DNA from: Gemmatimonadota bacterium | GTDB lineage: Bacteria > Gemmatimonadota > Gemmatimonadetes > Gemmatimonadales > GWC2-71-9 | Assembly (NCBI GenBank): GCA_009692115.1 | Contig: SHZU01000001.1 | Span: 421,598-485,597 of the forward strand | DNA length: 64,000 nucleotides | Reading direction: 5' to 3' | Part shown: one piece after another, positions 11,993 to 37,219 of the stretch | Layout of the letters: every line of letters begins with the position of its first letter | Position numbering within the stretch: the stretch's first letter is position 1 | The notes under the pieces: generated by a model | Told to the model about the DNA's origin: nothing | Databases searched by the model: none | What the model saw: the letters and a program-made list of their open reading frames with translations, nothing else | Translations under genes and position numbers: made by a program

Positions 11993-12004
11993 GCGCTGAA
12001 GATA

Positions 12005-12408
12005 CCGATTCGGTCGGGCCTCGGCTCCACCGTTTCGCCGACAGCCTCGTTGCGGTCCGGCCGAAGCTGCCCGGCCTGATTCTCTACGTCCGCGACGGCG
12101 CGTCCGGCCGGCGCTGGCGGATTGCGTCGGGATGGTCCGATACCGTGCGCCGGGTCCGGCTCGACCCGAACCAACCGCTCCGGATTGCGAGCAACACCGA
12201 GACCTACGTGGCCGCGGCCATGCTCCGACTGGTGGAGCGAGGGACGCTCACGCTCTCCAACCCGCTGTCCCGCCACCTCCCGGCCCATCTGAATGCGATG
12301 CTGGTTGCCGATGGGTATCCGACCGACCGGATGACCATCGAGCAGGTGTTCAGCCATCGATCCGGCCTGGACGAGCACCCCGCCATCGCCTCCTGCGCGG
12401 CCGTGGCC
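12005..12408 (+). pseudogene. Internal fragment of a beta-lactamase-family serine hydrolase (decayed copy of 31546..32649)
   Basis: DSVGPRLHRFADSLVAVRPKLPGLILYVRDG...HPAIASCAAVA aligns residue for residue with the N-terminal third of 31546..32649. It has no start codon or signal peptide of its own. The active-site SNTKTY of the intact copy reads SNTETY here. Homology stops near 12408. Confidence 0.7.
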
Positions 12409-12624
12409 GACCGGGCGACGGAGGGACTGCACCAGCGCCACCAATACGATGAGGTAGGCCGGCCACATCGCGGCCCGTTGTCCCTCGATCAGCACGCTCG
12501 CGGCCACCAAGACAACCCCGATGGCTCCGAGCGCAAACGGGGCCCGGCGTCCCCTGACCCATTGCCACAGGATTGCCGCCACCACCAGCGCAATGATCCA
12601 TTCGAACGGTCACATCGTTCCGCC

Positions 12625-14031
12625 CTATCGCTTGATGTCGGCGCCGGCCGCCGCGGCCTGGCCCGGAGGCACCATCGGCTCGTGGCGCGGGTAGACGATC
12701 TGGCCGCCCTGGACCTGGACCCGGCCGTCCCGAATCACGATGTCCACCTTGGCGATGTCGTCGAGGCGCTCGTCGGGGTTGCCGTTCAGGACCAGCACAT
12801 CGGCGAGCTTGCCGACCTCGAGGGTCCCGAGCTTGTCTCCCATGTCGAGCATCTGGGCATTGACCCGGGTGGCAATGCCGAGCACCTCGGGCACGGTATA
12901 GCCAACCCGGACGAAGTTCCGCATCTCTTCGTGGTAGGGCCACGGGAGGTACCGGAACCAGTCGACCACCAAATCGGTGCCGATGCCTAACGTGACGCCG
13001 GCATCCTTCATCTTCTTGACCAGGGCCATGTTGGCCGAATCCGAGAAGGTGAACCGCCGGCTCTGCGATCCGAAATACCCGCCACTCAGCCGGAAGATGA
13101 TCTGATACGGAATCAGGGTCGCATCCGACTCGACACCCTTCTCGGCCATCAGCCGGATCGTTTCGTCGGTCCGGGGGAGCGGATGCTCGATCATATCGAC
13201 CCCGGCCCGGACCGCGCGCTCGATATAGAACGTCTCGGCGTCGGCGGTGATCTTGAGGCCGAGGTCGTGGGTCTCGGCGACGGCCGCCTGGATCTCTTCC
13301 TCGGAAAAGTGGCTGGTCACCTTGATGAAGTCGGCGCCCCGGGCCACCTGCTCGCGAACCGCGTTCCGCCAATCAGCGGGCCCCGTCGCCACCCGGACGC
13401 CGGCCAGGTACTGGCCGCCCGCAATGTCGGGCTCGTTGCCATGGCCGCCCTGCCCCGCAATCACGTTGCCAGCGGCAAAGATCCGGGGCCCGACCAGCCG
13501 GCCCTCGGTGACCCATTCCTTGAGCAGGAACGGCGTCTCGCCATCAGAGCCGGTGTCGCGGAGCGAGGTGATCCCGCTCTCGATGTAGTACCGGAGCCGC
13601 TCGGCCCCCCGAAGCGCACCGTCGGCCCGGCTTCGGGCCCTGGCGTCCGAGTCACCCGGCAGGCGGTAATCGATGTGGGTATGAAGGTCGATCAGGCCCG
13701 GCATCACGGTCTTGCCGGACACGTCGATGACCCGGGCATCCTTGGGCCAATCGGTGCTCGTCGGCGGCAGGATGGCCGAGATCTGATTGCGGGTGATGAC
13801 GACCGTGGCGGCCCGGGCCACGGCACCGGTCCCGTCCCAGAGCCGGCCGCCCTTGAGGACCAGGGTGCCCTTCGGGGCGTAGAGGCCCGCGGGGATCGGG
13901 ATCCGGCGCGGGTCGTCGGTGGTGTTGGTACTGGGCGCGATCCACCGCCGCCGTTCGGTGCGCGGAACCTGCGCCACGAGCGAGGGCAGCAACGACACCA
14001 GGAGGATCGAGGCAAGAAAGAAGCTACGCAT
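12625..14031 (-). CDS. Amidohydrolase family protein, secreted (paralogue of 39203..40594)
   Basis: Signal peptide MRSFFLASILLVSLLPSLVAQ. Motifs PGLIDLHTHIDY, GADFIKVTSHF, GVTLGIGTDL and GTLEVGKLADVLVLNGNP. Confidence 0.8.
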   Translation of the reverse strand: MRSFFLASILLVSLLPSLVAQVPRTERRRWIAPSTNTTDDPRRIPIPAGLYAPKGTLVLKGGRLWDGTGAVARAATVVITRNQISAILPPTSTDWPKDARVIDVSGKTVMPGLIDLHTHIDYRLPGDSDARARSRADGALRGAERLRYYIESGITSLRDTGSDGETPFLLKEWVTEGRLVGPRIFAAGNVIAGQGGHGNEPDIAGGQYLAGVRVATGPADWRNAVREQVARGADFIKVTSHFSEEEIQAAVAETHDLGLKITADAETFYIERAVRAGVDMIEHPLPRTDETIRLMAEKGVESDATLIPYQIIFRLSGGYFGSQSRRFTFSDSANMALVKKMKDAGVTLGIGTDLVVDWFRYLPWPYHEEMRNFVRVGYTVPEVLGIATRVNAQMLDMGDKLGTLEVGKLADVLVLNGNPDERLDDIAKVDIVIRDGRVQVQGGQIVYPRHEPMVPPGQAAAAGADIKR

Positions 14032-14138: not shown

Positions 14139-14894
14139 ATGCCGAAACCCTTCGAAGGAAAAGTCGCGCTGATTACCGGTGGCAACTCCGGGATCGGCAA
14201 AGCCACGGCGCTCCAGTTTGCCGAGCAGGGGGCCCGCGTCGTGATCGCGGCCCGCCGAGCCGCGGAAGGCGAAGCGACCGTCGCCGAAATCCGCGGCAAT
14301 GGCGGCGAGGCGATATTCGTCGCGACCGACGTCGTCCAAGCGGCCGATGCCGAGGCGGTGGTCAAGAAAACGGTGGCCGCCTACGGGCGACTCGATTGCG
14401 CCTTCAACAACGCGGGCGTCTCCGGCGGGGCCCTCCTCCATGAGGTGACCGAGGCGGATTGGGACCGGATGATCGACGTGAACTTGAAGGGCGTCTGGCT
14501 CGGGATGAAGTACCAAATCATCCAGATGTTGAGCCAGGGCGGTGGCGCCATCGTCAACGATTCCTCGGTGGCTGGGCTCACCGGGTACGTCCGAAGCCCC
14601 GCCTACTCAGCAAGCAAGCACGGCGTCATCGGGTTGTCCAAGTCGGCGTCGCTCCAATACCGTGACCACGGGATCCGGATCAATGTCGTCTGCCCCGGCA
14701 TGATCATGACCCCGATGATCGAGCGGGCCTTTGCGATTCCGGGCGTGGAAGACTGGTTCCGCTCGAAGGTGCCCGGGCGGGGCGGGAACCCTGACGAGGT
14801 GGCGCAGGCGGTGACGTGGCTCTGTTCCGATGCCGCGTCCTATATCAATGGCGTGGCCCTCCCGATCGACGGCGGGCTGTCCTCCGGGCTCTAG
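14139..14894 (+). CDS. SDR family oxidoreductase
   Basis: KVALITGGNSGIGKATA (TGxxxGIG), NNAG, and YSASKHGVIGL (YxxxK). Confidence 0.85.
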   Translation: MPKPFEGKVALITGGNSGIGKATALQFAEQGARVVIAARRAAEGEATVAEIRGNGGEAIFVATDVVQAADAEAVVKKTVAAYGRLDCAFNNAGVSGGALLHEVTEADWDRMIDVNLKGVWLGMKYQIIQMLSQGGGAIVNDSSVAGLTGYVRSPAYSASKHGVIGLSKSASLQYRDHGIRINVVCPGMIMTPMIERAFAIPGVEDWFRSKVPGRGGNPDEVAQAVTWLCSDAASYINGVALPIDGGLSSGL

Positions 14895-15283
14895 CGTTGC
14901 GGGACGTAGGCGACGCAGTCAATCTCGACGCGGAGCCCTTCCTCGGGCAGCGCCACGGCTTGGATCGTGGTGCGGGCCGGCCGATGCACCCCGAACACGC
15001 GGGCATAGACGCCGTTCATCTCCGCGAGGTCGTTTATGTCGATCAAGAACACCCCGCACCGAAGCACGTGCTGGAGGTCCGAGCCTGCCGCCCGGAGGAT
15101 CGTCCGGACGTTCATGAGACACTGCTCGGTCTGCGACGCCGTATCGATGCCGACCCGCCGTCCGGTGGCCGGATCGTCGGCGCCTTGGCCGGAGACGAAG
15201 ATCAGGCGCTCGAACACCATCCCAGGCGAATAGGGTCCGGCCGCTTCGGGAAGATTCGGGGCGTGGATCGGCTGGTGGCGCAT
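14891..15283 (-). CDS. RidA/YjgF family reactive-intermediate deaminase
   Basis: ATG 15283 gives MRHQPIHAPNLPEAAGPYSPG..., the typical RidA N-terminus, and C-terminal RTTIQAVALPEEGLRVEIDCVA. The upstream extension to 15367 was rejected. Confidence 0.8.
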   Translation of the reverse strand: MRHQPIHAPNLPEAAGPYSPGMVFERLIFVSGQGADDPATGRRVGIDTASQTEQCLMNVRTILRAAGSDLQHVLRCGVFLIDINDLAEMNGVYARVFGVHRPARTTIQAVALPEEGLRVEIDCVAYVPQR

Positions 15284-15363
15284 TAGGTGTTCCGAGGTGA
15301 AAGAAGTTCGGGGGACGGGGAATAGTAACCCGAAGTCGAGCCGGGCCGAACCACCCGCTCCAA

Positions 15364-16521
15364 TCACTCCGAAAACGACCCGCCGGATTGCTCAACCTCG
15401 GCCAGGACCGCCGCCGTGTGTTCACCGAGGGCCGGCACCCGGTCCATTCTCGGCGGGGCACTGGCCAGGTTGTGCGGCGGGAGCAATGCGGGAATCGGCC
15501 CGAGAAACGACTCAAGTTCGGTCCACCGCCCCCGCGCGGCAAGTTGCGGATGGGCCACGACCGCGGCCACGTCGTTCACCACCGCGTTGGCGATCTCGCC
15601 CCGCTCGAGCCGCTCGATCACCGCGGCAACGGACAGCGTCCCGAAGATCGTCTCGATCAACAACTCGAGCTCCCGCCGATTGGCCAGCCGGTCGGTGTTA
15701 GCAGCGAAGCGCGGGTCGTCGGCTAACTCGGCCCGGCCCAAGACCACGTCGCAGAGCCGGCGCCATTCGCGGTCGTTCTGAATCGCGAACATCACGTTGC
15801 CGTCAGCGCAGCGGTAGGCGCCATACGGAACGATCATATTGTGACGGAGGCCGGCCCGAGGCGGCGGCGCCCCGGTGCCGAGTTGGACGTACAACTGGGG
15901 CGTCATCCATTCGACCAGGCACTCGAGCATCGAAATGTCGATCCGGTCGCCGCGACCGGTCCGATCACGCTGGCGGAGCGCGGCCAACACGCTCGAGTAG
16001 GCGTAGAGGCCGGCCGCGATATCGGCGACGCTGATCCCGACTTTGGCCGGCGCATCGGGCGTACCCGTTAGGCTGACGACACCCGCCTCCGCCTGGATCA
16101 GCATGTCGTAGGCTTTCTTGTCCCGGTACGGGCCATCGGGACCATACCCGGAGATCCCTGCCCAAATCAGCCGGGGCGCCACCGCCGCCAGAACCTCATA
16201 GCCGAGCCCGAGGCGCTCGACCGATCCGGGCGCCAAGTTGTGGACGAAAACGTCGGCGCGCCGCACCAGCCGTGTCATGGCCGCCCGCCCCGATGCGGTC
16301 TTGAGATCGAGGACGACGCTCTCCTTGCCCCGATTGAGCCACGCGAAGTAGGCCGACAGTCCATGCAGGGCTCCGTCGTAGCCGCGCGCGAAGTCGCCGC
16401 CGTCCGGCCGTTCGATCTTGATGACCCGGGCGCCCAAGTCGGCCAGTTGCCTGGAACAGAACGGCCCGGTCACCGCCTGTTCGAGCGCGACGACCGTGAG
16501 GCCCGAGAGTGGCATCGTCAC
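15364..16521 (-). CDS. Family III CoA-transferase (CaiB/BaiF)
   Basis: LSGLTVVALEQAVTGPFCSRQLADLGARVIKIERPDGGDFAR is a textbook CaiB/BaiF N-terminus. Confidence 0.85.
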   Translation of the reverse strand: MTMPLSGLTVVALEQAVTGPFCSRQLADLGARVIKIERPDGGDFARGYDGALHGLSAYFAWLNRGKESVVLDLKTASGRAAMTRLVRRADVFVHNLAPGSVERLGLGYEVLAAVAPRLIWAGISGYGPDGPYRDKKAYDMLIQAEAGVVSLTGTPDAPAKVGISVADIAAGLYAYSSVLAALRQRDRTGRGDRIDISMLECLVEWMTPQLYVQLGTGAPPPRAGLRHNMIVPYGAYRCADGNVMFAIQNDREWRRLCDVVLGRAELADDPRFAANTDRLANRRELELLIETIFGTLSVAAVIERLERGEIANAVVNDVAAVVAHPQLAARGRWTELESFLGPIPALLPPHNLASAPPRMDRVPALGEHTAAVLAEVEQSGGSFSE

Positions 16522-16527
16522 TGGCGC

Positions 16528-17676
16528 CTAGAAGATGTTGGTTTCGACCGCACCGCTCTGCTCCGCAAACCGGGTAATCCGCAACTCATCGACATCGATG
16601 GTCCGGGCCCGGCCTTCGAGGATTTCCTCCGCCATCAACAGCCCGGTGGCCGGCGCATGCATCACGCCGTGGCCGCTGAATCCGCTGGCGTCGACGTAGT
16701 TAGGCAGATCGGGGTGGCGGCCCATGATCGGCATGTGGTCTGGCGTAATCTCATAGAGGCCGGCCCAGCACTTCTTCTCAGCCAGCCGGGCGTCCTCGAG
16801 CGCCGGAAACCGGCTGACCCCCGCCTCGAGCACGGTGCCGAGCCAGTCCCAATCGACGTCGATCCGTTCACTCGACGGCTCGTCCTGGTTTGACAATCCG
16901 AAGAGCATGCCCCGCCCTTCTTTTCGGATGTAAAATCCGCTCGAGACGTCGAACGTGAACGGCATCCCATCCGGCAGGACTGGAAACTCCTCTGTCATAT
17001 AGATGCTCCGCCGATAGGGGAGCACCGGGACCTCGAGCCCCGCCAGCGCCGCCACTGCACCAGCCCACGGACCCGCGGCGTTGACCAGCATATCGCACCC
17101 GATCCGGCCGTTAGGCGTTTCCACGGCCGTGACCCGGTCGCCCGCTCGATGTACCGTGGTCACCGGCGAATCACACGCGACCGTGACGCCGAGTTCCTGG
17201 GCCCGCTTCACGTAGCCCATCGCCACGCCGTACGGATCGCAGTACCCGTCGAGCGGGCAGTAGGTCGCCCCGATGACGTCGTCGACCCGGGTTCCCGGCA
17301 CCAGCCGCTCGATGTCGGCAGGGCCGAGTAGTTCGGTCGGGACCCCTAGCCGCCGCTGGAGCTCGGCCTGCCCTTGAAACGCCGGCCACGCCGCCGGATC
17401 GGTGACCAAGAGGAGATAACCCACCTGGTGGAGTTCCGCGTACCCGCCAACCTCCTCGGTGAACCGGCTCAGCCGCTCGATACTGTACCGCGAGAGCCGG
17501 ATGTTCATTTCCGTGGCGAATTGGTGCCGGACCCCGGCCGCCGAGCGGGCGGTGCTGCCGGTGGCCGGCGCCTCCGACCGTTCCAGCACGATCACATCGG
17601 TGCACCCGCGGAGGGCCAGATGGTACGCGATCGAGCCGCCGATAATGCCGCCGCCGACGATGACGACTTGAGGCAT
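16528..17676 (-). CDS. FAD-dependent oxidoreductase, DAO family (D-amino-acid / sarcosine oxidase beta-like)
   Basis: ATG 17676 gives MPQVVIVGGGIIGGSIAYHLALRG...STARSAAGVRHQF. The 93-aa Arg/Pro-rich upstream extension of the listed ORF was rejected. Confidence 0.8.
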   Translation of the reverse strand: MPQVVIVGGGIIGGSIAYHLALRGCTDVIVLERSEAPATGSTARSAAGVRHQFATEMNIRLSRYSIERLSRFTEEVGGYAELHQVGYLLLVTDPAAWPAFQGQAELQRRLGVPTELLGPADIERLVPGTRVDDVIGATYCPLDGYCDPYGVAMGYVKRAQELGVTVACDSPVTTVHRAGDRVTAVETPNGRIGCDMLVNAAGPWAGAVAALAGLEVPVLPYRRSIYMTEEFPVLPDGMPFTFDVSSGFYIRKEGRGMLFGLSNQDEPSSERIDVDWDWLGTVLEAGVSRFPALEDARLAEKKCWAGLYEITPDHMPIMGRHPDLPNYVDASGFSGHGVMHAPATGLLMAEEILEGRARTIDVDELRITRFAEQSGAVETNIF

Positions 17677-17680
17677 CCGC

Positions 17681-18271
17681 TCACGCCTCCAACGCGGCCG
17701 CGATCCCGAGCAGGGCTTCCCGCATCCGGTGGGCCAGGTACGGACCATCGCGGGGCGGCAACGCCTTGGGTTCCGGGTCCGCGCCGATCTTGAGCACGGC
17801 CACCAGCGGTCCGGCCAGTCGGTGCAGGTCAGCGCGGAGGGCGTCGACCTCGGCGAGCGTCGTAATCGTCCGAGTGTCGGTAATCCCGGAAGCTCTGGCA
17901 ATCCCGGCGAGGTCGGCGCCGGACGCAGTGTGGGTTCGTTGATTGCCGGTTTCACCGAACCGCTCGTTGTCGAGCACCACGACCCGAAGGTTGGCCGGCT
18001 GTTCCACTCCGATCGTGGCGAAACTCCCGACGCCCATCAGCATCTCACCGTCGCCCGTCACCACCAGCACCGGGCGGGACGGCTGCGCGATCGCCAATCC
18101 GAGACCCACCATCGCGGCGCCACCCATGGCGCCCCACAACGGAAAGTCGAGCGGCGAATCCCCGGCGGCGGCCACGTCATAGGCCGAGGCCCCGAGTCCG
18201 GTGACGACCACCAGATTGCCGCGGTCCGTGAGCAGGCGCCGGACCGCGTCGCGCCGGGGAATGGCGGTCAT
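17681..18271 (-). CDS. TPP-dependent decarboxylase, beta subunit (sulfopyruvate/phosphonopyruvate decarboxylase ComE-like)
   Basis: TPP-binding motif VVTGDGEMLMGVGSFATIG...NLRVVVLDNERFGETGNQ. ATG 18271 overlaps the alpha-subunit stop (ATGA). Confidence 0.8.
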   Translation of the reverse strand: MTAIPRRDAVRRLLTDRGNLVVVTGLGASAYDVAAAGDSPLDFPLWGAMGGAAMVGLGLAIAQPSRPVLVVTGDGEMLMGVGSFATIGVEQPANLRVVVLDNERFGETGNQRTHTASGADLAGIARASGITDTRTITTLAEVDALRADLHRLAGPLVAVLKIGADPEPKALPPRDGPYLAHRMREALLGIAAALEA

Positions 18272-18798
18272 TTGGACGCCTCCGTAAACCGCTTGGCCCC
18301 AAGGAGCCGCTGCGACAACAGTACCGCGACCCGGCGGCGGCTCTGCCACGCCAGTTGGATCGCCCCATCGACCGTCGGAGCGACCTCGGCTCCGGTATCG
18401 GCGCGGAACACCGTGACCCCGCTAGCCGCCAGCACCGCCGGCGTGCTCGATCCCATCGGCACCTGCCAGGGATTGAACTCGCCCCACTCGCCCCGCATCG
18501 TGACGATGGTCACGAACGGGATCTGGCAGATTTGGGGCAGCGACAACATGTTGATGCAGTTGCCCACCCCGCTCGACTGAATCAACAGGACCGAGCGAAC
18601 CCCGCCGAGATACGCACCGGCCGCCAGGGCCACGCCTTCCTCTTCGGTCGTGAGCGTCACCGTCCGGATGGCCGGATCGGCCTGGCAGCGTTCGATCAGC
18701 CGTTGATGCCCGGCGTCCGGCACGACCGACACCAGTCCAATCCGATGAGTGCGAAACAGGGCGTGAATCTCGTCCGCCCATTCAATCTGGTCATTCAT
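18268..18798 (-). CDS. TPP-dependent decarboxylase, alpha subunit (ComD-like)
   Basis: VPDAGHQRLIE...TTEEEGVALAAGAYLGG...LIQSSGVGNCINMLSL...VTMRGEWGEFNPWQVPMG matches the pyrimidine-binding half of split sulfopyruvate-decarboxylase-type enzymes. Confidence 0.8.
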   Translation of the reverse strand: MNDQIEWADEIHALFRTHRIGLVSVVPDAGHQRLIERCQADPAIRTVTLTTEEEGVALAAGAYLGGVRSVLLIQSSGVGNCINMLSLPQICQIPFVTIVTMRGEWGEFNPWQVPMGSSTPAVLAASGVTVFRADTGAEVAPTVDGAIQLAWQSRRRVAVLLSQRLLGAKRFTEASK

Positions 18799-20234
18799 GT
18801 CGAGTGGAGCCCGATCGAGAAGTATTTGATGTCGAGAAACTCATCGATGCCCCAGTGGCCGCCCTCGCGGCCAATCCCGGACATTTTGACCCCACCAAAC
18901 GGCGCCTGCGCCGTCGATGGCACCCCATCGTTGATGCCGACGATCCCAAACTCGAGCGCCTCCGCCACCTGGTAGGCCCGCCGTAAATCTGCGGTCCAGA
19001 GATACGCCGCCAGCCCGAATGGCGAATCGTTGGCCAGCCGAATCGCCTCGGCCTCGGTCGTGAAAGTGAGCACCGGCGCTACCGGGCCGAACGTCTCTTC
19101 GTGCATGAGCTTCATCGCGGGCTGAATGCCCGTGAGCACGGTGGGCTGGTGGTAGAGGCCGGTCAGGGCCTTGCCGCCGGTCAGGACGGTGGCGCCGAGT
19201 CGGGCGGCATCCTCGAGATGCTCGACGATCTTGGCGAGGCCGGCCTGGTCCACCATCGGACCGATCTGGGTGGCCGGATCGAGCGGGTCGCCGACCTTGA
19301 GCGCAGCCACGGCGGCGGCCAACCGCGCGGTAAACGCCGGCGCGATCGACGCCTGGACGTAAATCCGATTGGTGCAGACGCAGGTCTGGCCCCCATTTCG
19401 GAACTTACACGCCATCACTTCCCGGACCGCGGCATCGAGCGGGGCGTCCTCAAAAATCAGGAACGGCGCATGCCCTCCAAGCTCAAGAGCCAGGCGCTTC
19501 ATGGTCCGAGCCGACTGCTCGTAGAGATGAACGCCGACCTCGGTCGACCCGGTGAAGGTGAGGACGCGAACCCGGAGATCGTCGAGCAGCACCCCGGACA
19601 CCGGCCGCGGATCGAGCGCCGTGAGGACTTGGAACGCATCCGGCGGCCCGCCCGCCTCGCGCCAGAGCGCCGCGAGTGCCAGCGCCGACAGCGGCGTCTG
19701 CTCGGCCGGCTTGACGATCACCACGCACCCCGCCGCCAAGGCCGGGGCGATCTTCCTGGTGACGGTCGCAATCGGGAAATTCCATGGCGTAATCGCATAG
19801 ACGATCCCGGTCGGCTGCTTGATCGCGTGAAGCCGCTTGTGGGCAAACTGGCTGGCGATGGTTTCCCCGCCGATCCGCTTGGCTTCCTCGGCATACCATT
19901 CGACGAACCCCGCACCGTACCGGACTTCCCCGACCGACTCGGTCACCGGCTTGCCCATTTCGACGGTCATCAACTCGGCCAGCACCGGCTCATGGGCCAC
20001 GATCAGCGCGTGCCACTTCTTCATCACCAGGGCCCGCTCGTAGGCGGTGGTTCGCTTCCATCGATCGAACCCGGTCGCGGCCTGATCGAGTGCCGAGCGG
20101 GCTTCAGCCGCGCCGCAATCCGGCACGGTGGCTACGACCCTTCTGTCAATCGGCGATCGGACCTCGAACGTCGCGGCCGCCCCGGTGCCGGCGGCCCGAA
20201 TCCGGTCGAAGAATATCGGATCGAGCATGGTCAC
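18795..20234 (-). CDS. NAD(P)+ aldehyde dehydrogenase, succinate-semialdehyde dehydrogenase (GabD)-like
   Basis: The long stretch GKPVTESVGEVRYGAGFVEWYAEEAKRIGGETI...KQPTGIVYAITPWNFPIATVTRKIAPALAAGCVVIVKPAEQTPLSALAL is collinear with GabD. The start is GTG 20234 or ATG 20228. Confidence 0.85.
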   Translation of the reverse strand: MTMLDPIFFDRIRAAGTGAAATFEVRSPIDRRVVATVPDCGAAEARSALDQAATGFDRWKRTTAYERALVMKKWHALIVAHEPVLAELMTVEMGKPVTESVGEVRYGAGFVEWYAEEAKRIGGETIASQFAHKRLHAIKQPTGIVYAITPWNFPIATVTRKIAPALAAGCVVIVKPAEQTPLSALALAALWREAGGPPDAFQVLTALDPRPVSGVLLDDLRVRVLTFTGSTEVGVHLYEQSARTMKRLALELGGHAPFLIFEDAPLDAAVREVMACKFRNGGQTCVCTNRIYVQASIAPAFTARLAAAVAALKVGDPLDPATQIGPMVDQAGLAKIVEHLEDAARLGATVLTGGKALTGLYHQPTVLTGIQPAMKLMHEETFGPVAPVLTFTTEAEAIRLANDSPFGLAAYLWTADLRRAYQVAEALEFGIVGINDGVPSTAQAPFGGVKMSGIGREGGHWGIDEFLDIKYFSIGLHST

Positions 20235-20713
20235 TCCTTGATCGTCGGGATCGGGCGAACCGGAGCATGGCCCCGCTTGTACACCAGAATGGTGCGCCGG
20301 AACGTCATCACTACGGTGCCGTCCTGTTTGTACCCGGTGGTCTTGATTTCAACGATGCCCATGGTGGGCCGGGAGCCCGAGTCCCGAGTGCTCAACACTT
20401 CGGTCTGGGCGTAAATCGTGTCACCCTCGAAGACCGGGGCCGGCATCCGAATATCCTGCCAACCCAGATTGACTGCGTTCTGGGAGATGTCGGACACCGT
20501 GAGGCCCACCACCAGCGCCAACGTAAACGTCGAGTTGACGAGCGGCTGGCCGAACTCGGTCTGGGCCGCGTAATGGCGGTCGAAGTGGATCGGGTTGCTG
20601 TTGTTGGTGAGGAGCGTAAACCAGGCATTGTCGGTACTGGTGACGGTCCGGCCAATGGCGTGCCGAACGACCAACCCGACCTGGAAGTCCTCGTAGGACC
20701 GAGCCTCACTCAT
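20231..20713 (-). CDS. MaoC-like (R)-specific enoyl-CoA hydratase/dehydratase (hot-dog fold)
   Basis: 160 aa. TDNAWFTLLTNNSNPIHFDRHYA and GWQDIRMPAPVFEGDTIYAQTEVL are typical of MaoC dehydratases, the mesaconyl-/itaconyl-CoA hydratase type of family. Confidence 0.8.
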   Translation of the reverse strand: MSEARSYEDFQVGLVVRHAIGRTVTSTDNAWFTLLTNNSNPIHFDRHYAAQTEFGQPLVNSTFTLALVVGLTVSDISQNAVNLGWQDIRMPAPVFEGDTIYAQTEVLSTRDSGSRPTMGIVEIKTTGYKQDGTVVMTFRRTILVYKRGHAPVRPIPTIKE

Positions 20714-21654
20714 CGCGTCGCCTCCGGGTGCAGAGCCTTGATAGCGTCGGCCCGGCGGAGGGTCGTCATCGCCATCCGGATGTTGGCCGCGTCGATCATC
20801 CTGCCGCCGATCGCCACCGCCCCCCGGCCCCCGGCCGTGGCCTGGTCATAGGCCGCGACCACCGAGCGAGCCCAATCGACCTCGGCCGGGAGCGGCGAGA
20901 ACGCGACGTTGACCGCCGCGATCTGGGCGGGATGAATGCATTGCTTGCCGTCGAACCCGAGCGCCCGGGCCGTCCGGCAGGCCCGTTCGAAACCAGCGGT
21001 GTCCTTGAAATCCGCATACGGCCCGTCGAGGGCCCGGAGCCCGTTGGCCCGGGCGGCCGCCACGATCCCGTGCATCACCGCGTGCCATCGGTGGCCGGGA
21101 TAGGCGGCGTCATCCTCGTCGGCCTCGCCAATGCTCGCGAGCGGCATCCGCATCGAGGCGGCATAGTCACCGGATCCGAAGATCAGCGATTCGAGCCGCT
21201 CGGAACTCGCGGCGATTTCCCGAAGCCAGAGGAACCCGCCGGCGGTTTCGATCTGAGCTTCGATCCCGATCCGGTGGCCGATCCCGGACCGGGCCTCGAT
21301 CTGGGTCAGCAGGGTGTCGACGAACTTGACGTCGTTGGGTCCGCGGGTCTTCGGCAACATCACGGCATCGATCGATTGGCCGGCGGATTCGACCACGTCG
21401 ACCAGATCGCGATAGGCATACATCGTGTCGAGGCCGTTGATCCGAACCAGCCGGGTTCGGGCCCCGAAGTCGAGCGTCGTCAGGGCCCGGACCACGTGGG
21501 CTCGGCTCCCCTCCTTTTGCTCCGGCGCTACCGCATCTTCCAAGTCGATACAGATCGCGTCGGCCCCGCTCCGGGCGGCCTTCTCGATCATGTCCGGTCG
21601 GGAGGCCGGGACATACAGCATGCTGCGGGACAACCGGTCCGGCGGTGTCGTCAT
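20710..21654 (-). CDS. HpcH/HpaI / CitE-like acyl-CoA lyase (citramalyl-/malyl-CoA lyase family)
   Basis: SRSMLYVPASRPDMIEKAARSGADAICIDLEDAV is a CitE-family N-terminus. I chose ATG 21654. The alternative TTG 21666 would overlap the ACAD stop by 4 nt. Confidence 0.8.
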   Translation of the reverse strand: MTTPPDRLSRSMLYVPASRPDMIEKAARSGADAICIDLEDAVAPEQKEGSRAHVVRALTTLDFGARTRLVRINGLDTMYAYRDLVDVVESAGQSIDAVMLPKTRGPNDVKFVDTLLTQIEARSGIGHRIGIEAQIETAGGFLWLREIAASSERLESLIFGSGDYAASMRMPLASIGEADEDDAAYPGHRWHAVMHGIVAAARANGLRALDGPYADFKDTAGFERACRTARALGFDGKQCIHPAQIAAVNVAFSPLPAEVDWARSVVAAYDQATAGGRGAVAIGGRMIDAANIRMAMTTLRRADAIKALHPEATR

Positions 21655-21662
21655 AGTTGGTC

Positions 21663-22832
21663 TCAAAACGAGCGGGGCATGCCGAGGACGTGCTCACCCA
21701 CGAACGAGAGGATCAAGTTGGTGGAAATCGGGGCCACTTGGTAGAGGCGGGTTTCCCGGAACTTCCGCTCGATGTCATACTCGGTGGCAAACCCGAACCC
21801 GCCGTAGGTTTGGAGACAGGCGTTCGCGGCCTGCCACGAGGCATCGGCGGCCAGCAACTTGGCCAGATTGGCTTCGGCCCCGCAGGGTTCCCCGGCATCA
21901 AAGAGGCGGGCCCCCTCGTACCGCATCAGATCCGCGGCCCGAACGTTGGCGTAGGCTTGGGCGATCGGAAACTGGACGCCCTGATTTTGGCCGATCGGCC
22001 GGTCGAAGACGATCCGCTCGGTAGCGTACGTCCGGGCCCGGTCGATGAACCAGTACCCGTCGCCCACGCACTCGGCGGCAATCAGAATCCGCTCGGCATT
22101 CATTCCGTCGAGGATGTATTTGAACCCTTGCCCTTCTTGCCCGATCAGGTTGTCGGCCGGGATTTCAAAATTCTCGAAGAACAGCTCGTTGGTCTCATGA
22201 TTCACCATGTTCTCGATCGGGCGGACGGTGAGCCCGTCGTTCCCACCTTGCTTGAGATCGACCAAGAACACCGACAGGCCCTCGGTCCGTTTGGTCACCC
22301 GTTCCAGCGGTGTGGTCCGGGCCAGCAACAGCATCAAGTCGGAATGCTGGACCCGGGAAATCCAGACCTTCTGGCCGTTGACGACGTAGCGATCGCCCCG
22401 GCGCTCGGCGAAGGTCTTGATCTTGGTGGTGTCGGTTCCGGCCGTCGGTTCGGTCACGGCAAATGATTGGAGACGAAGTCGCCCCGCCGCGATCTCGGGG
22501 AGGTAGCGCTGTTTCTGCTCGAGCGACCCGTGGCGGAGCACCGTCCCCATCACGTACATCTGGGCATGACAGGCGCCGGAGTTGGCACCGGCCCGATTGA
22601 TCTCCTCCAAGATGACCGACGCTTCGGTCAACGTGAGCCCGCCGCCGCCGAACTCCTCGGGAATGAGCGCGGCCAGCCAGCCGGCATCGGTCAAGGCCTG
22701 CACGAAGGCCTCGGGGTATCCCGACTGGCGCTCGATCTGCTGCCAGTAGGCGCTGTCGAACGGCGCGCAGACCGCGCGAACCCCTTCACGAATGTCACTG
22801 TACTCCCGGGCCCTCGGGTTGATTTCGCTCAT
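21663..22832 (-). CDS. Acyl-CoA dehydrogenase
   Basis: FAVTEPTAGTDTTKIKTFAERRGDRYVVNGQKVWISR and C-terminal YGGFGFATEYDIERKFRETRLYQVAPIS. Confidence 0.85.
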   Translation of the reverse strand: MSEINPRAREYSDIREGVRAVCAPFDSAYWQQIERQSGYPEAFVQALTDAGWLAALIPEEFGGGGLTLTEASVILEEINRAGANSGACHAQMYVMGTVLRHGSLEQKQRYLPEIAAGRLRLQSFAVTEPTAGTDTTKIKTFAERRGDRYVVNGQKVWISRVQHSDLMLLLARTTPLERVTKRTEGLSVFLVDLKQGGNDGLTVRPIENMVNHETNELFFENFEIPADNLIGQEGQGFKYILDGMNAERILIAAECVGDGYWFIDRARTYATERIVFDRPIGQNQGVQFPIAQAYANVRAADLMRYEGARLFDAGEPCGAEANLAKLLAADASWQAANACLQTYGGFGFATEYDIERKFRETRLYQVAPISTNLILSFVGEHVLGMPRSF

Positions 22833-24202
22833 CGATCAAGTCCGGCGAACGCCCCGGCCATGTCAACGCAGCCGTCAAGCGCCCCAACTGCCGCGATGGC
22901 ACGCTCCGCAGCCGCCATGCCGAGTCGGGGCGAGACCAGATCCCGAAGCTTGGCCTCCAGCGCTTCCGTCGTCACGGGGTTTTCCGGGTTGCCTTTCGGG
23001 AAGGCGGCCGACATTTCAGACCCGGTACCATCCTTCCGGGTAAACCGGATTCGAGTGCCCCACTCCGCTGGGTACCGAGCCGTGATCCCGGGATCGACCG
23101 ACACGAGGATCCGGTCGAGAAGGGGGCGGATGCGAGGGTCAGTCACGCCAGGCTCGGCAAACCGATCCGGAGTAAACTGACCGAGCCCCACCCGCCCTTC
23201 GACGAGCGCGGCGGCGACGCAGTAGGCCAGGCTGAACTTGGCCTGATAGGGCGTCTTCGGGTTCGGTTCTTTCACGATCTCGTATCCAGACGCATACGTG
23301 GCCACCTCGACCGACGCCACCCCGGCCCAGTCGGCCGCGGTGCGATACTCGAGCGCCAGATCGATGGCGGAGTGGGTGTGCCCGCAGCACGAATGAAGCT
23401 TGAAGCAATTCTCGCTGACTTTCCAGTGGGTCCCGAGGCCGTCGGTAATCCGCGTCGCATCGAAATCAGTGCTGGTAGCCCGGAAGAAACCCCGGGCGCC
23501 TTCGAGAATCCGGCTCGCGCCGGTAAACCCCTGGCGCGCGAGATCCGCGGACAGGACGCCGTTGAACGCGGCCTTGCCGGGGTGGAGATGTTTGCTCATC
23601 GCGCCGTCGGCATTGAACTCCCAGAGCCCGGCCGCCTGGGTGCCGGCGCTTCCCAGAGCGTCGAGCATCGCGGCCTCATCGAGCCGAAGCAGCGACCCGG
23701 CGGCCACCGCGGCCCCGAACGTGGCGGCGGTGCCCGTGGGGTGCCAGAAGCGGTAGTGGCTGGGGTTCACCGCCTCCCCGACCCGGAGGGCGGCCTCGTA
23801 GCCTAACGCAACGGCCAGCAGGAAGTCCCGCCCGCTCCGGTGCTCTCGCTCCGCCACGGCCAAGGCCGCGGGAATGACCGGGGCCGCGGCGTGAAGGGTC
23901 GAGCCCTTGTGGACATCGTCCAGCTCGAGAATATGGGAGGCCACCCCGTTGGCGAGCGCCGCGGTGGCCGCCGCCGTCCGGCCGGCACCAAACACGGTGG
24001 CTTCATCGGAACGGCCGAGCGTGGCCACCACCCGCTGCGTCATCCGGGCGGCCGGCTCCTTGGCGCCCGCCAGCACCGACCCGAGCCAGTCGAGCACCGC
24101 TCGGCTGGTATCGGCGAGTGCGGCCGGGGGAAGATCCTCAAATCTGGCCGCCGACGAGAACGCCGCCAACCGCCGGCTGACGGGCTGATCGGGCGCCGTC
24201 AT
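22829..24202 (-). CDS. MmgE/PrpD family protein (2-methylcitrate dehydratase superfamily)
   Basis: RLAAFSSAARFEDLPPAALADTSRAVLDWLGSVLAG is the canonical PrpD-family N-terminus. HSCCGHTHSAID region. 457 aa. Confidence 0.85.
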   Translation of the reverse strand: MTAPDQPVSRRLAAFSSAARFEDLPPAALADTSRAVLDWLGSVLAGAKEPAARMTQRVVATLGRSDEATVFGAGRTAAATAALANGVASHILELDDVHKGSTLHAAAPVIPAALAVAEREHRSGRDFLLAVALGYEAALRVGEAVNPSHYRFWHPTGTAATFGAAVAAGSLLRLDEAAMLDALGSAGTQAAGLWEFNADGAMSKHLHPGKAAFNGVLSADLARQGFTGASRILEGARGFFRATSTDFDATRITDGLGTHWKVSENCFKLHSCCGHTHSAIDLALEYRTAADWAGVASVEVATYASGYEIVKEPNPKTPYQAKFSLAYCVAAALVEGRVGLGQFTPDRFAEPGVTDPRIRPLLDRILVSVDPGITARYPAEWGTRIRFTRKDGTGSEMSAAFPKGNPENPVTTEALEAKLRDLVSPRLGMAAAERAIAAVGALDGCVDMAGAFAGLDR

Positions 24203-25146
24203 GCCGGAGGCGGCTTCACCATGGCGGCGTACTTCGCCCCGAGCCCGGACTCCGGCGACTGGGGCCCGAACACCGACACCAGACCGCGGACCAGATTCAT
24301 CCCGACCACCGAGATGTGGGACTCATCGGGGAAGATCCGGGTCGATAACTGCAGACCGGGATACTTCTTGGCTCGGAGCATGGTTTCCAGGCGGAGAACA
24401 TTGGTCACCATCCGGGACGAGGCGGCCGGCCCCATTTCTTCGAGACCGCCGACGCCGATGAACACGTTGGCGCGGAGGTCGCTGTGGGTCTTTCCGTACG
24501 CCTCGGCCAGCTTGAGGGCGTCTTCCCCACCCCACCAGAGCGACGGGCTCCCGATGATATAGCGGTTGAAGGTGTCGGGCTTGGTGAACAGCACGTAGGA
24601 TCCGAACAGGCCCCCCAACGAATCGCCCCAGTAGCCCCGGTCGGCGGGATCGGTCGAATAGCGGGCGTCGATGAACGGCATCAGTTCATCGCGGATGAAG
24701 GCGAGGAATTTGTCCGCTCCTCCGCTGGTGACCAGGGGCCGGAGCACCCCGGCCACCGGCATGCCTCCCCCGCCCTCGCGGTCCTTGACCAGTACCTGAG
24801 TCAGATCGCGGGACCGGATGAAGGTGGCTTGCATGATACTCGAAGCCCCCGGATACCCGATCCCGACCGCAATGTACCGCGGCGTGTCGTTCATCACCAT
24901 CAGCCGCAAGTGGTCCTCGTCGACGATGAACCCGTTGTGGACGTCGGTCATGTAGACGACCGGGAACCGAGTCGTCTCGCCGGGGATCATCGGGGGCAGC
25001 AGCACCCGGATTTCAAAGGAATCACCCACGGCCTTCGACACCAGCCGATGGGTCGTGACCGGCGCCACGGTGATGAGCGGCTGAGCAACCGCCGGCCCGG
25101 CGGCGAGGCCCACGAGCAGTCCCCCGGCGGCGAGGCAAATCTTCAT
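24199..25146 (-). CDS. Secreted alpha/beta-hydrolase, 'putative esterase' (IroE/enterochelin-esterase-like) family
   Basis: ATG 25146 has AGGAG upstream. Signal peptide MKICLAAGGLLVGLAAGPAVAQ. Nucleophile elbow GDSLGG. The stop overlaps the PrpD-family start (ATGA). The 177-aa upstream extension of the listed ORF was rejected. Confidence 0.7.
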   Translation of the reverse strand: MKICLAAGGLLVGLAAGPAVAQPLITVAPVTTHRLVSKAVGDSFEIRVLLPPMIPGETTRFPVVYMTDVHNGFIVDEDHLRLMVMNDTPRYIAVGIGYPGASSIMQATFIRSRDLTQVLVKDREGGGGMPVAGVLRPLVTSGGADKFLAFIRDELMPFIDARYSTDPADRGYWGDSLGGLFGSYVLFTKPDTFNRYIIGSPSLWWGGEDALKLAEAYGKTHSDLRANVFIGVGGLEEMGPAASSRMVTNVLRLETMLRAKKYPGLQLSTRIFPDESHISVVGMNLVRGLVSVFGPQSPESGLGAKYAAMVKPPPA

Positions 25147-25314
25147 GGTGATACCTTGAGGCTCCTGGTGGGGTCGTGATGTGGCTCCGCTCTGAGCAAG
25201 ACGCCACTGAGTCCAATCTATCCCCGGGCCGAGGGCCAAGCCACGGACCTTCACCGGCCGTCCTCGGGCGCCAGATCGCCGGAATCCTGACCCAAGCCCT
25301 GAGCGAGCCGTAAG

Positions 25315-25662
25315 TTGGCCGGCATCGAAGCCCGCCACCTCGGCGATTTGCTCGACGCCGACCTGGTGATCCTGCCGGTCCCGGTCCGGCTGGAACTGCT
25401 CGCCGGCTCGCCGCGCAAGGCTCACCGCCAATTGCGGGACCACCTGTCGGCCGTGCCCCGGGCGGTTCCCGAGAAAGCAACCTGGGTCCGGATCGACACC
25501 TGGGTCACCACCGCCGTCGAGGCCGGTCATCGGTTTGGCTTGGCCGACCTCCTGATCGCCGCCACCGCGGCCGATCACCAAGCCACACTCTGGTCTCTCG
25601 ATTCCGATTTTGTCAGGATGGAACGACTGGGCTTCGTGTCCCTCCATGCCCCCGGGAAGTAG
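25315..25662 (+). pseudogene. PIN-domain (VapC-like) toxin gene lacking its N-terminal strand
   Basis: The C-terminal two thirds of a PIN domain are present: RLELLAG, GLADLLIAATAADHQATLWSLDSDF. The first acidic residue (DTS-type strand) is missing. There is an in-frame stop at 25300-25302 and only a TTG start. No convincing antitoxin lies upstream. Confidence 0.45.
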
Positions 25663-31545: not shown

Positions 31546-32649
31546 ATGATCGCGGTCCTGTTCGCCATCGCCACCGCGCAGGTGGCCCAACCCGATTCGA
31601 TCGGGCCTCGCCTCCAGCACTTCGCCGACAGCCTCGTCGCGGCCCGGCCCAAATTGCCCGGCCTCATCCTGTATGTGAAGGATGGCCGTTCCGGCCGCCA
31701 ATGGCGGATTGCCTCGGGGTGGTCGGATACGGCCCGCCGGGTCCGGCTCGATCCGGGCCAGCCCCTCCGGATCGCCAGCAACACTAAGACCTACGTGGCG
31801 GCGGCGGTGCTCCGACTGGTAGAACGGGGAACGCTCCAGCTATCGGATCCGCTCTCCCGCCATTTGCCGGCCGATCTGAACGCCATGCTGGTTGGCGACG
31901 GGTATGCCACCGATCGGATGACGATCGAACAGGTGTTGAGTCACCGGTCCGGGTTGAACGAACACCCGGCCGTGGCGTCTTACGCGGCCGTTGCCCTGGC
32001 GGCACCGAAGAAGCGGTGGACGCGGGAGGAACAGGTCCGGTGGTTGGTGGACAGCCTCCAGCCGGTCGGCGAGCCCGGTGAACGGTATCGCTACTCCGAT
32101 ACCGGTTACATCCTGCTCGGCGCGATCCTCGAGCGATATACCGGGAAGAACGTCGGTGTGGCGGTGCGGGAGTTGGTGGATTTCAAGAAGCTCGGGCTGG
32201 TCAGAACCTGGTTCGAAACCCTCGAGCCCGAACCGAACGGCGCGGGCCCCCGAGTGCACCAGTACATCGGCGGGTTTGACTCCTACGAATTGGATCCGTC
32301 GTTCGACCTCTACGGGGGCGGCGGAATCGACGCGCCCCTCGACGAAATGGGCGGATTCCTCGAGGAGCTGTTGTCCGGCCGGGTGTTCGCGCGGCCGGCC
32401 ACGCTCGAGACCATGCTCAAGGCGCGGAGTCCCGATCGCGGCGGCTACGGACTCGGGATCTTCCAGGTCGATACGCTGGGCCACCATGGCTACGGGCACG
32501 CGGGATTCTGGGGGACGGTCGGATACTACTTCCCGGCGAGCCGTCTGACGGTTGCGGCGGCGGTCACCGAACAAACCGAGGGCCGGGTTGCCTATGCCGC
32601 CGTTCCCGCCGTGCTGGCGATCCTCTTTCCGAAGGCACCCCGGAGCTGA
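31546..32649 (+). CDS. Serine hydrolase, beta-lactamase-related
   Basis: SNTKTY (SxxK), YSDTGY, GHAGFWG. This is the intact paralogue of the fragment at 12005..12408. Confidence 0.8.
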   Translation: MIAVLFAIATAQVAQPDSIGPRLQHFADSLVAARPKLPGLILYVKDGRSGRQWRIASGWSDTARRVRLDPGQPLRIASNTKTYVAAAVLRLVERGTLQLSDPLSRHLPADLNAMLVGDGYATDRMTIEQVLSHRSGLNEHPAVASYAAVALAAPKKRWTREEQVRWLVDSLQPVGEPGERYRYSDTGYILLGAILERYTGKNVGVAVRELVDFKKLGLVRTWFETLEPEPNGAGPRVHQYIGGFDSYELDPSFDLYGGGGIDAPLDEMGGFLEELLSGRVFARPATLETMLKARSPDRGGYGLGIFQVDTLGHHGYGHAGFWGTVGYYFPASRLTVAAAVTEQTEGRVAYAAVPAVLAILFPKAPRS

Positions 32650-36051: not shown

Positions 36052-36052
36052 A

Positions 36053-37200: not shown

Positions 37201-37219
37201 AAACAACGGAGATCTCGAC

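Follow-up and report, generated by a model that had tools for sequence, protein, structure and literature searches.

We analyzed a stretch of 64,000 nucleotides (nt) of contig SHZU01000001.1, hereafter called the window, from the metagenome-assembled genome of a soil Gemmatimonadota bacterium (G+C content of the window, 67%). Our subject is a series of eleven open reading frames on its minus strand (positions 14891-25146), in which genes of a coenzyme A (CoA)-dependent methylsuccinate/itaconate pathway are joined to a split thiamine pyrophosphate (TPP) decarboxylase, an aldehyde dehydrogenase (ALDH), a flavoenzyme of the DAO family, a RidA protein and an esterase (Table 1). Genes were predicted with a caller for high-GC loci based on codon-position log-likelihoods, which reproduced the public calls; the eleven frames agree independently with the public gene calls on the contig. 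The initial annotation, made from the sequence alone, had listed the same set, and all frames were recovered at the positions it gave, with every family assignment backed by Pfam and NCBIfam.

Table 1. Features of the window, with positions counted from its first nucleotide; the operon genes are listed from first to last.
Feature	Position	Strand	Remarks
PF00756 esterase, predicted secreted	24199..25146	-	First gene of the operon; Pfam E 8e-14; N-terminal MKICLAAGGLLVGLAAGPAVAQP signal-like
MmgE/PrpD protein, Msi-like two-base epimerase	22829..24202	-	Pfam MmgE_PrpD_N and MmgE_PrpD_C
Acyl-CoA dehydrogenase (ACAD), probable Mcd	21663..22832	-	Three ACAD domains; 71% identical to PA0879
CitE/HpcH-type acyl-CoA lyase, proposed (S)-citramalyl-CoA lyase	20710..21654	-	PF03328
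MaoC hydratase, single-hotdog, RipB/Ich-like	20231..20713	-	PF19315 MC_hydratase; putative mesaconyl-C4-CoA or itaconyl-CoA hydratase
NAD(P)-dependent ALDH, like succinate-semialdehyde dehydrogenase (SSADH)	18795..20228	-	Aldedh; TIGR01780
TPP enzyme alpha (PYR domain), ComD/RhiE-like	18268..18798	-	TPP_enzyme_N-like; TIGR03845
TPP enzyme beta (PP domain), ComE/RhiF-like	17681..18271	-	PF02775 TPP_enzyme_C; TIGR03846
DAO-family FAD amine/amino-acid dehydrogenase/oxidase, like SoxB/proline dehydrogenase beta	16528..17676	-	PF01266, E 4e-73
Family III CoA-transferase, probable succinyl-CoA:methylsuccinate/itaconate CoA-transferase (Ict)	15364..16515	-	PF02515, E 8e-118
RidA, Rid family imine/enamine deaminase	14891..15283	-	Last gene of the operon; TIGR00004
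Intergenic region between the operon and the divergent VapC/PIN gene; likely promoter region	25147..25314	.	Sequence and gene calls
Examples of the dense hydrolase set	27199-29517, 46080-47846, 56225-57922, 29585-31282, 40712-42364		

The genes are tightly packed. Five of the six 4-nt overlaps first annotated are plain ATGA start/stop overlaps, read directly in the sequence at 24199, 22829, 20710, 18795 and 18268. The sixth, a GTGA overlap of the MaoC and ALDH genes at 20231, needs the rarer start codon GTG 20234; ATG 20228, used in the public call, has an AAGGAG Shine-Dalgarno sequence 5 nt ahead, leaves a gap of 2 nt and is the likelier start. A seventh overlap, proposed for the case that the lyase gene starts at TTG 21666, is possible, but the publicly called ATG 21654 is more plausible. 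The wider spacings were confirmed, with 4 nt between the TPP beta and DAO genes, 80 nt between the CoA-transferase and RidA genes, and 6 nt between the DAO and CoA-transferase genes if GTG 16521 is used as start (12 nt with ATG 16515). The operon is flanked by a divergent VapC/PIN gene upstream and a convergent SDR-family gene downstream; the gene calls place no regulator gene next to the operon, as had been stated before. Scans for consensus promoters and terminators gave nothing above shuffled expectation, and a sigma-70 consensus was not found in the divergent region 25147..25314. Spacing and the conserved synteny of nine of the genes suggest that all eleven form a single transcript. At the downstream end, the RidA (-) and SDR (+) genes converge at 14891-14894 with stop codons that overlap by 4 nt, which leaves no room for an intergenic terminator.

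The CoA-dependent genes find their reference in the five-gene cluster PA0878-PA0883 of Pseudomonas aeruginosa, also present in Cupriavidus necator, whose roles were assigned by experiment (Gonner et al. 2025, PMC12290011). There, Ict (PA0882; the characterised C. necator enzyme is 60% identical to it) is a succinyl-CoA:itaconate/(R)-methylsuccinate CoA-transferase, Ich the hydratase, Ccl the lyase, PA0879 the dehydrogenase Mcd, which acts on (RS)-methylsuccinyl-C4-CoA, and PA0881, an MmgE/PrpD protein, the methylsuccinate isomerase Msi (PMC12290011). According to the same study, what passes for an "itaconate cluster" in saprophytes is in fact a pathway for methylsuccinate, and Msi occurs in only 1.6% of species, 96% of them Pseudomonadota (Gonner et al. 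2025, PMC12290011).

We took the P. aeruginosa cluster from its annotated record (L089), which matches the enzyme-family makeup that the initial annotation had given for this locus, and compared the proteins by BLASTP. The ACAD of the window is 71% identical to PA0879 over 386 amino acids and the CoA-transferase 58% identical to PA0882 over 376 amino acids, which bears out the itaconate/methylsuccinate-type module as annotated; the CoA-transferase stays below the NCBIfam cut-offs for glutarate, oxalate and mesaconate transferases. As in the known cluster, the dehydrogenase gene is next to the isomerase gene, here with an ATGA overlap, and copies 64-91% identical to the ACAD adjoin the split TPP enzyme in other phyla. 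The MmgE/PrpD protein keeps all seven named Msi residues (H88, E91, H102, Y148, H152, K202 and K266, corresponding to H90, E93, H104, Y150, H154, K204 and K268 of the window), among them the His/Tyr pair of the proposed two-base mechanism; similarity to the IDS epimerase in the PDB is weaker (134 bits). Judged by these residues, at an overall identity to PA0881 of only 41%, it would be a methylsuccinate isomerase.

The hydratase and the lyase are of other types. No BLASTP match at all was obtained between the MaoC hydratase and PA0878, and hence it does not belong to the PA0878 type of itaconyl-CoA hydratase; its best NCBIfam model is RipB_Ich (182 bits, cut-off 340), with 75 bits for 2-methylfumaryl-CoA hydratase, and its best PDB match is a beta-methylmalyl-CoA dehydratase. 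The lyase is 33% identical to PA0883 and scores below the cut-offs of both citE (197 bits) and RipC_Ccl (177 bits, cut-off 375). Its nearest solved structures are malyl-CoA/beta-methylmalyl-CoA lyases of the Mcl1 type (5ugr, 261 bits; 4l9y, 243 bits), with 123 bits for RipC and 105 bits for PA0883. The earlier description as CitE-like holds at the level of the CitE/HpcH family, but the protein is nearer to Mcl1-type lyases than to Ccl. By homology, the CoA-dependent half of the operon appears as a hybrid of the known pathway, made up of Ict and Mcd of the P. aeruginosa type, an Msi-like isomerase, a hydratase of the Yersinia type and a lyase of the Mcl type. This half is not new, as the roles of its ACAD and MmgE/PrpD protein have been assigned experimentally since 2025.

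The split TPP enzyme (its alpha-beta gene pair is called TPPab below) is less easily placed. For both subunits the best-scoring named models are those of sulfopyruvate decarboxylase ComD/ComE, with 119.3 bits for alpha (TIGR03845, cut-off 147.95) and 115.4 bits for beta (TIGR03846, cut-off 221.5); the scores with the phosphonopyruvate decarboxylase model TIGR03297 are 65 and 101 bits, far under its cut-off of 312.5. In the PDB, weak similarity connects alpha to RhiE (9iz3_A, E 2e-9) and beta to RhiF (E 6e-15). The beta residues G73, D74, G75, E76, D101 and N102, which form the diphosphate-Mg binding motif GDGE...DN, are invariant in 29 homologues, and because of this invariance the enzyme should be catalytically competent. 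Alpha carries the motif TTEEEG, whose Glu we assign by analogy as the activating Glu of the PYR domain. The family is very large, with at least 7,900 matches in the protein database at E <= 1e-10 (all but 27 of 8,000 scored candidates), and many of these are annotated only generically as thiamine pyrophosphate-dependent or acetolactate synthase-like.

Among the remaining enzymes, the ALDH comes close to a named function: it reaches 569.5 bits with the SSADH model TIGR01780, below the subfamily cut-off of 646.35 (NF008415, 529.5 against 828), its seven named top PDB matches are all succinate-semialdehyde dehydrogenases (E about 1e-147), and the motif FRNGGQTCVC is read in its sequence. The DAO-family protein reached no cut-off of the NCBIfam equivalogs. 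Its best PDB match is 1y56_B, deposited as "sarcosine oxidase" and known as the L-proline dehydrogenase complex of Pyrococcus horikoshii; dimethylglycine dehydrogenases follow, and the D-arginine dehydrogenase DauA scores 72 bits. Such relatives suggest that this DAO subfamily, which the window has in common with Deinococcus clusters (41-45% identity), may act on cyclic or secondary amines. In Deinococcus the DAO gene forms an overlapping pair with an SDR gene, and on plasmid pDFI1 of D. ficus (L174) this pair occurs with an AraC regulator and a DMT transporter but without the rest of the cluster. On a Haladaptatus plasmid (L175), a 41% identical DAO homologue adjoins a gene of the ornithine-cyclodeaminase (OCD) family and an S9 peptidase. 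RidA exceeds its cut-off (TIGR00004, 111 bits against 106.25) and has the PART motif with the conserved Arg, which we presume to correspond to Arg105 of RidA. The esterase has the siderophore esterases BES, PfeE and IroE as its nearest solved structures.

For a comparison of gene neighborhoods, we collected loci surrounding relatives of TPP beta, 80 from genomes and 80 from metagenomes, together with several contigs with exact protein matches and three annotated Deinococcus plasmid regions, and mapped the proteins of the window onto all of them. Across the 160-odd related loci, alpha is invariably paired with beta. Within the Gemmatimonadota, TPPab occurs together with the CoA module in L010, L090, L091, L094, L011 and L009, and it does so likewise in an unclassified contig (L167). 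L090 reproduces the order of the window without esterase and RidA (Msi-Mcd-lyase-Ich-ALDH-TPPab-DAO-Ict), L091 has Msi-Mcd-lyase-Ich-TPPab-Ict with neither ALDH nor DAO, L009 lyase-Ich-TPPab-DAO-Ict, L011 ALDH-TPPab-Msi-Ict, and L094 SDR-HyuA-HyuB-Msi-Mcd-Ich-ALDH-TPPab-lyase. Six Deinococcus species or metagenome-assembled genomes (L014, L015, L018, L025, L088 and L173) carry, mostly on megaplasmids, the order Msi-TPPab-PxpA-Mcd-Ict-(lyase)-Ich-ALDH-PxpBC-SDR-DAO, with core genes 60-78% identical to those of the window and, in at least two of them (L088 and L015), an AraC regulator upstream. In Burkholderiales, Roseomonas and other Proteobacteria (L052, L062, L064, L083, L084, L140 and L144), the neighbors of TPPab include genes like Mcd (64-77% identity) and Ict (46-54%), in many cases along with an ALDH. 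TPPab recurs beside this CoA module in three phyla.

Some features of these clusters deserve mention on their own. The 11-12 gene clusters of D. taeanensis (L088, p_TS293_3) and Deinococcus sp. QL22 (L173, plasmid) are flanked by several insertion sequence/transposase genes; in QL22 the fused PxpBC gene looks decayed, with two small hypothetical frames in its place, and the gene table of D. taeanensis lists no lyase gene. The SDR gene convergent with the operon (14139-14894) was considered as a member of the system and dropped, since it is only 34-35% identical to the SDR proteins of Deinococcus and L094, which share 65% with each other.

A flank of 4 kb or more on either side was available for 74 TPP beta loci, and 17 of these contain a gene of the module. 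An ALDH gene comes before or after TPPab in 13 loci. Elsewhere, TPPab adjoins makers of 2-oxo acids (aminotransferases, D-2-hydroxyacid dehydrogenases, NadB-like flavoproteins, enolase-superfamily dehydratases), users of aldehydes (ALDHs or molybdenum aldehyde oxidases), acyl-CoA ligases, enoyl-CoA hydratases and TctC/TRAP carboxylate transporters. Triads of DAO, TPPab and ALDH recur in Ktedonobacterales and metagenomic contigs (L012, L096 and L098), with DAO and ALDH only about 30% identical to those of the window. This distribution fits a general role of TPPab in modules that shorten anionic 2-oxo acids by one carbon, with TPPab supplying the decarboxylase. In another recurrent context, found in Burkholderiales (L020, L021, L031, L036, L071 and L072), TPPab stands with a fumarate-reductase/NadB-like flavoprotein, a fused TRAP permease and an Ldh_2-family dehydrogenase, probably for a different 2-oxo-dicarboxylate route or for true sulfolactate/sulfopyruvate metabolism.

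The association with the CoA module has been rebuilt with differing gene order, and at separate places in a rough TPP beta tree, which argues for functional coupling of TPPab and the module rather than for inherited synteny. The novelty lies in the pathway's conserved fusion, in at least three phyla, with a TPP decarboxylase of the split kind and with a varying set of partners that process amines, lactams and aldehydes. In the literature searched we found no description of this gene combination, in keeping with the earlier statement that no pathway of this composition was known; the CoA half alone has already been characterised. The core of the system is smaller than the pathway of eleven genes proposed at first. 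Neither the esterase nor RidA was detected beside the TPP enzyme in any related cluster that is not identical to the window, so that eleven genes are an overstatement, and the absence of ALDH and DAO from L091 and L009 makes these two frequent rather than universal partners. We regard the esterase, for whose part in the pathway there is no support, as a passenger of the transcript or an accessory particular to this lineage; we had considered it as a pathway lactonase and gave this up, given its siderophore-esterase relatives and its absence from the sister clusters.

Taken together, sequence identity to assayed enzymes and repeated gene association lead us to propose a single catabolic route in two halves, an upper feeder that would yield methylsuccinate or itaconate and a lower CoA-dependent half that would degrade it; we consider the chances of this overall reading to be about even. 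The lower half is well supported by homology. The Msi-like MmgE/PrpD protein would racemise free methylsuccinate, the Ict-like CoA-transferase would attach CoA at C4, taking it from succinyl-CoA, and the Mcd-like ACAD would oxidise the thioester to mesaconyl-C4-CoA. The RipB/Ich-like MaoC protein would perform the hydration, at which point itaconyl-CoA could also enter, and the CitE/Mcl-type lyase would finally release acetyl-CoA and pyruvate. These products, formed via (S)-citramalyl-CoA, are assumed on the ground that both Ict and Mcd show C4 specificity where they have been characterised.

The upper half is inferred from the gene content. The DAO-family flavoenzyme would convert a matching amino acid to the 2-oxo acid, with RidA speeding hydrolysis of the released imine. 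The split ComDE-like enzyme would then decarboxylate a methyl- or methylene-branched 2-oxo C6 dicarboxylate, i.e., a 3- or 4-substituted 2-oxoglutarate, and the resulting analogue of succinic semialdehyde would be oxidised to methylsuccinate or itaconate by the SSADH-like ALDH. The succession of amine oxidation, 2-oxo acid, TPP-dependent decarboxylation, aldehyde oxidation and CoA pathway had been drawn up in the initial annotation, and comparative genomics, with the recurring DAO-TPPab-ALDH triads, backs it. That TPPab is specifically the front end by which a branched glutamate or 5-oxoproline analogue passes through branched 2-oxoglutarate to branched succinic semialdehyde, as a natural aerobic source of methylsuccinate or itaconate, is a more tentative claim, which we hold with confidence somewhat short of even.

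The relatives offer a hint about the entry step. Clusters of Deinococcus contain PxpA and a fused PxpBC, while L094 and the Chloroflexi contain HyuA and HyuB. PxpABC and HyuAB are non-homologous, and according to their family descriptions both include 5-oxoprolinases, the main activity that the two families share. Since one or the other is found in otherwise equivalent clusters, the relatives seem to start from a 5-oxoproline-like lactam, from which the amino acid would probably first be freed by PxpABC or HyuAB; the operon of the window has no such lactam-opening step. In the Chloroflexi loci L005, L006 and L007, a block of TPPab, SDR, HyuA and HyuB (caprolactamase/oxoprolinase-like) is conserved without the CoA module, and in L094 (1-4932) the SDR-HyuAB block known from the Chloroflexi is fused to the methylsuccinate module. 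Reasoning backwards, the substrate of TPPab would be 3- or 4-methyl-2-oxoglutarate if the product is methylsuccinate, the methylene analogue if it is itaconate, and 4-hydroxy-4-methyl-2-oxoglutarate if it is citramalate. We favor the saturated methyl compound because Mcd and Ict most often accompany TPPab in Proteobacteria. The amino acids 3- and 4-methylglutamate and 4-methyleneglutamate are natural products, and no paper on the degradation of methyl- or methyleneglutamates to methylsuccinate was found in the literature searched; 4-methyl- or 4-methylene-glutamate as the starting substrate is a guess.

Several observations weigh against the proposed route. In a rough neighbor-joining tree of TPP beta, the module-associated copies do not form one clade, and at 55-65% identity TPPab occurs in many unrelated contexts. 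ALDH and DAO are lacking in L091 and L009, which are otherwise complete, and the ALDH of Deinococcus is only 39% identical to that of the window, with betaine-aldehyde dehydrogenase rather than SSADH as its best match. The SDR conserved in the clusters of Deinococcus, L094 and the Chloroflexi has no place in the scheme, and RidA and the esterase are unique to the lineage of the window. The DAO protein may not be a plain amino-acid oxidase, its relatives using secondary or cyclic amines and one homologue lying beside an OCD-family gene. Finally, with the lyase nearest to the Mcl1 type, cleavage of a C1 ester to propionyl-CoA and glyoxylate is conceivable as well.

These difficulties give room to other explanations. 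Two unrelated functions might merely share a locus, a standard itaconate/methylsuccinate module and, for example, a route from (D-)glutamate via 2-oxoglutarate and succinic semialdehyde to succinate, with no metabolite in common. The closeness of the ALDH to genuine SSADHs, the many contexts in which TPPab lacks the CoA module and the dispensability of ALDH and DAO in some clusters would all agree with this. We nevertheless think it unlikely: the two halves are interleaved, the CoA-transferase gene being located downstream of DAO and, in Deinococcus, Msi and Mcd enclosing TPPab-PxpA; the association was rebuilt in different gene orders in three phyla; L091 retains TPPab inside the CoA module even without ALDH or DAO; and decarboxylation of 2-oxoglutarate on the way to succinate would be redundant with the tricarboxylic acid (TCA) cycle.

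Slightly less probable still is a variant in which the route begins with a cyclic imino acid or a lactam, for instance methyl-substituted proline or 5-oxoproline, and the DAO protein acts as a proline-type dehydrogenase, the rest proceeding as in the favored route. Oxidation of the ring of a proline analogue needs a further transaminase or dehydrogenase to arrive at a 2-oxo dicarboxylate, and the operon encodes none, just as the window encodes no lactamase. These gaps stand against the relationship of the DAO protein to 1y56_B of the proline dehydrogenase complex, the OCD-family gene and S9 peptidase beside its 41% identical homologue, and the PxpABC or HyuAB lactamases of the sister clusters. 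The window is also crowded with proline-specific peptidases, and a prolidase-like amidohydrolase adjoins the operon, but such peptidases recur beside several related Gemmatimonadota clusters and may be genomic background.

A branch of lysine/2-aminoadipate catabolism, in which TPPab would convert 2-oxoadipate to glutarate semialdehyde, followed by glutarate, glutaryl-CoA, dehydrogenation and hydration, is very improbable. It would account for the best NCBIfam match of the CoA-transferase (succinate-glutarate CoA-transferase, 284 bits) and the second-best of the ACAD (non-decarboxylating glutaryl-CoA dehydrogenase, 210 bits), but both scores are far under the cut-offs of 750 and 470. We dropped this reading, as the same two proteins are far closer to Ict (58%) and Mcd (71%). 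To our knowledge, moreover, neither a CitE/Mcl-type lyase nor an MmgE/PrpD protein has a role in glutaryl-CoA degradation. Least credible of all, and likewise dropped, is a true sulfopyruvate or phosphonopyruvate decarboxylase in an operon for organosulfonates or phosphonates: although both TPP subunits have sulfopyruvate decarboxylase as their best named model and the ACAD matches 3-sulfinopropanoyl-CoA desulfinase with 194 bits, none of these scores attains its curated cut-off (119 against 148, 115 against 221 and 194 against 600), the downstream enzymes are orthologous to methylsuccinate enzymes, and the public gene tables, which cover about 8-64 kb of the window, contain no sulfonate, coenzyme M or phosphonate genes, be it xsc, sulfite-handling, PEP-mutase or phosphonatase genes.

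The proposed two-half route has points of contact with several known systems. P. aeruginosa's cluster for itaconate degradation, for which Sasikaran (2014) is reportedly the source, shares five enzyme roles with the window, as does that of C. necator. It differs in the hydratase, which is of the small RipB type in the window instead of the PA0878 type, in the lyase, which is Mcl1-like, and in having a VOC protein and a TRAP transporter, both absent from the operon of the window; the latter adds TPPab, ALDH, DAO, RidA and esterase in the same operon, in a gemmatimonadotal host. With RipABC of Yersinia pestis, the window has in common a MaoC protein whose best model is RipB/Ich and a lyase that also matches RipC_Ccl. 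However, the scores remain below the equivalog cut-offs, the CoA-transferase is of family III and not of the RipA type, and RipABC comprises neither Mcd nor Msi. ComDE and RhiEF/Ppd, the best-scoring named families for TPPab, are likewise two-subunit PYR/PP enzymes encoded by overlapping gene pairs. In contrast to them, TPPab stays below all curated cut-offs, has ALDH, DAO and CoA-pathway genes as partners rather than genes for coenzyme M, sulfonates or phosphonates, and is proposed to act on a carboxylate-bearing substrate.

The chemistry proposed for the upper half resembles the cyanobacterial TCA bypass by 2-oxoglutarate decarboxylase and SSADH, reportedly described by Zhang and Bryant in 2011, in that a 2-oxo dicarboxylate is decarboxylated by a TPP enzyme to an aldehyde of the succinic-semialdehyde type and then oxidised by an SSADH-type enzyme. 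The cyanobacterial decarboxylase, however, is a single-chain, acetolactate-synthase-like protein acting on unbranched 2-oxoglutarate in central metabolism, with no link to a CoA pathway. DauA is an FAD-dependent D-arginine dehydrogenase accelerated by Rid proteins, and the proposed pairing would parallel it, with a flavoenzyme of the DAO family giving off an imino acid and a deaminase of the Rid family beside it, although DauA is only a weak relative of the DAO protein of the window and the sister clusters have no conserved RidA.

Where methylsuccinate comes from in the environment was unclear until it was recently detected as a compound that gut bacteria form by reducing itaconate, and there is no direct evidence from soil (PMC12290011). 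The conserved feeder module that shares an operon with the pathway in Gemmatimonadota, Deinococcus and some Proteobacteria suggests that methylsuccinate has a biological precursor and makes the question testable; several carriers are in culture and have complete plasmid sequences (D. taeanensis TS293, Deinococcus sp. QL22 and D. altitudinis LMG 24022). If the proposed front end is real, it would explain why genes for methylsuccinate degradation are widespread in soil bacteria, and the TPPab subfamily would gain its first function outside sulfonates and phosphonates, that of a 2-oxo-dicarboxylate decarboxylase. The clusters also extend the methylsuccinate pathway beyond the Pseudomonadota, with a third, hybrid set of enzymes, and offer a first hint at function for the very large family to which the split TPP enzyme belongs.

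As to the surroundings, in the public gene calls for about 8-64 kb of the window, genes for secreted peptidases, amidohydrolases and hydrolases like beta-lactamase predominate. The window in general is unusually rich in proline-specific secreted peptidases (of the S9 DPP-IV and S15 X-Pro dipeptidyl peptidase types), amidohydrolases and serine hydrolases of PF00144 (examples in Table 1), which suggests a peptide-scavenging genomic region. Downstream of the operon follow a second DAO-family gene and a gene for a secreted amidohydrolase (10607-11992 and 12625-14031, both on the minus strand), which stay beside the operon in the contigs L001 and L002 of the same lineage. The former resembles the model of a "putative aminophosphonate oxidoreductase" (497 bits, cut-off 633), the latter the Xaa-Pro dipeptidase of Caulobacter (184 bits, cut-off 500).

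Two loci are of the toxin-antitoxin type. The VapC/PIN gene divergent from the operon (25315-25662, plus strand) scores 34 bits against an equivalog cut-off of 80, and a PemK/MazF toxin gene (34109-34749, minus strand) is accompanied by a small upstream frame. At 11980-12381 on the plus strand lies a truncated N-terminal paralogue of the PF00144 beta-lactamase-like gene at 31546-32649 (plus strand; 81% identity over 134 amino acids), in which the Lys of the SxxK motif is replaced by Glu (SNTET) and which is probably a pseudogene remnant; an overlapping frame of 198 amino acids on the minus strand (11989-12585), called in some public records, has no family match. Unexpected for a Gemmatimonadota contig rich in peptide hydrolases is a mau-like set on the plus strand (34846-37729), consisting of a methylamine dehydrogenase heavy chain, MauE, an AhpC/TSA-like (MauD-like) protein and the light chain.

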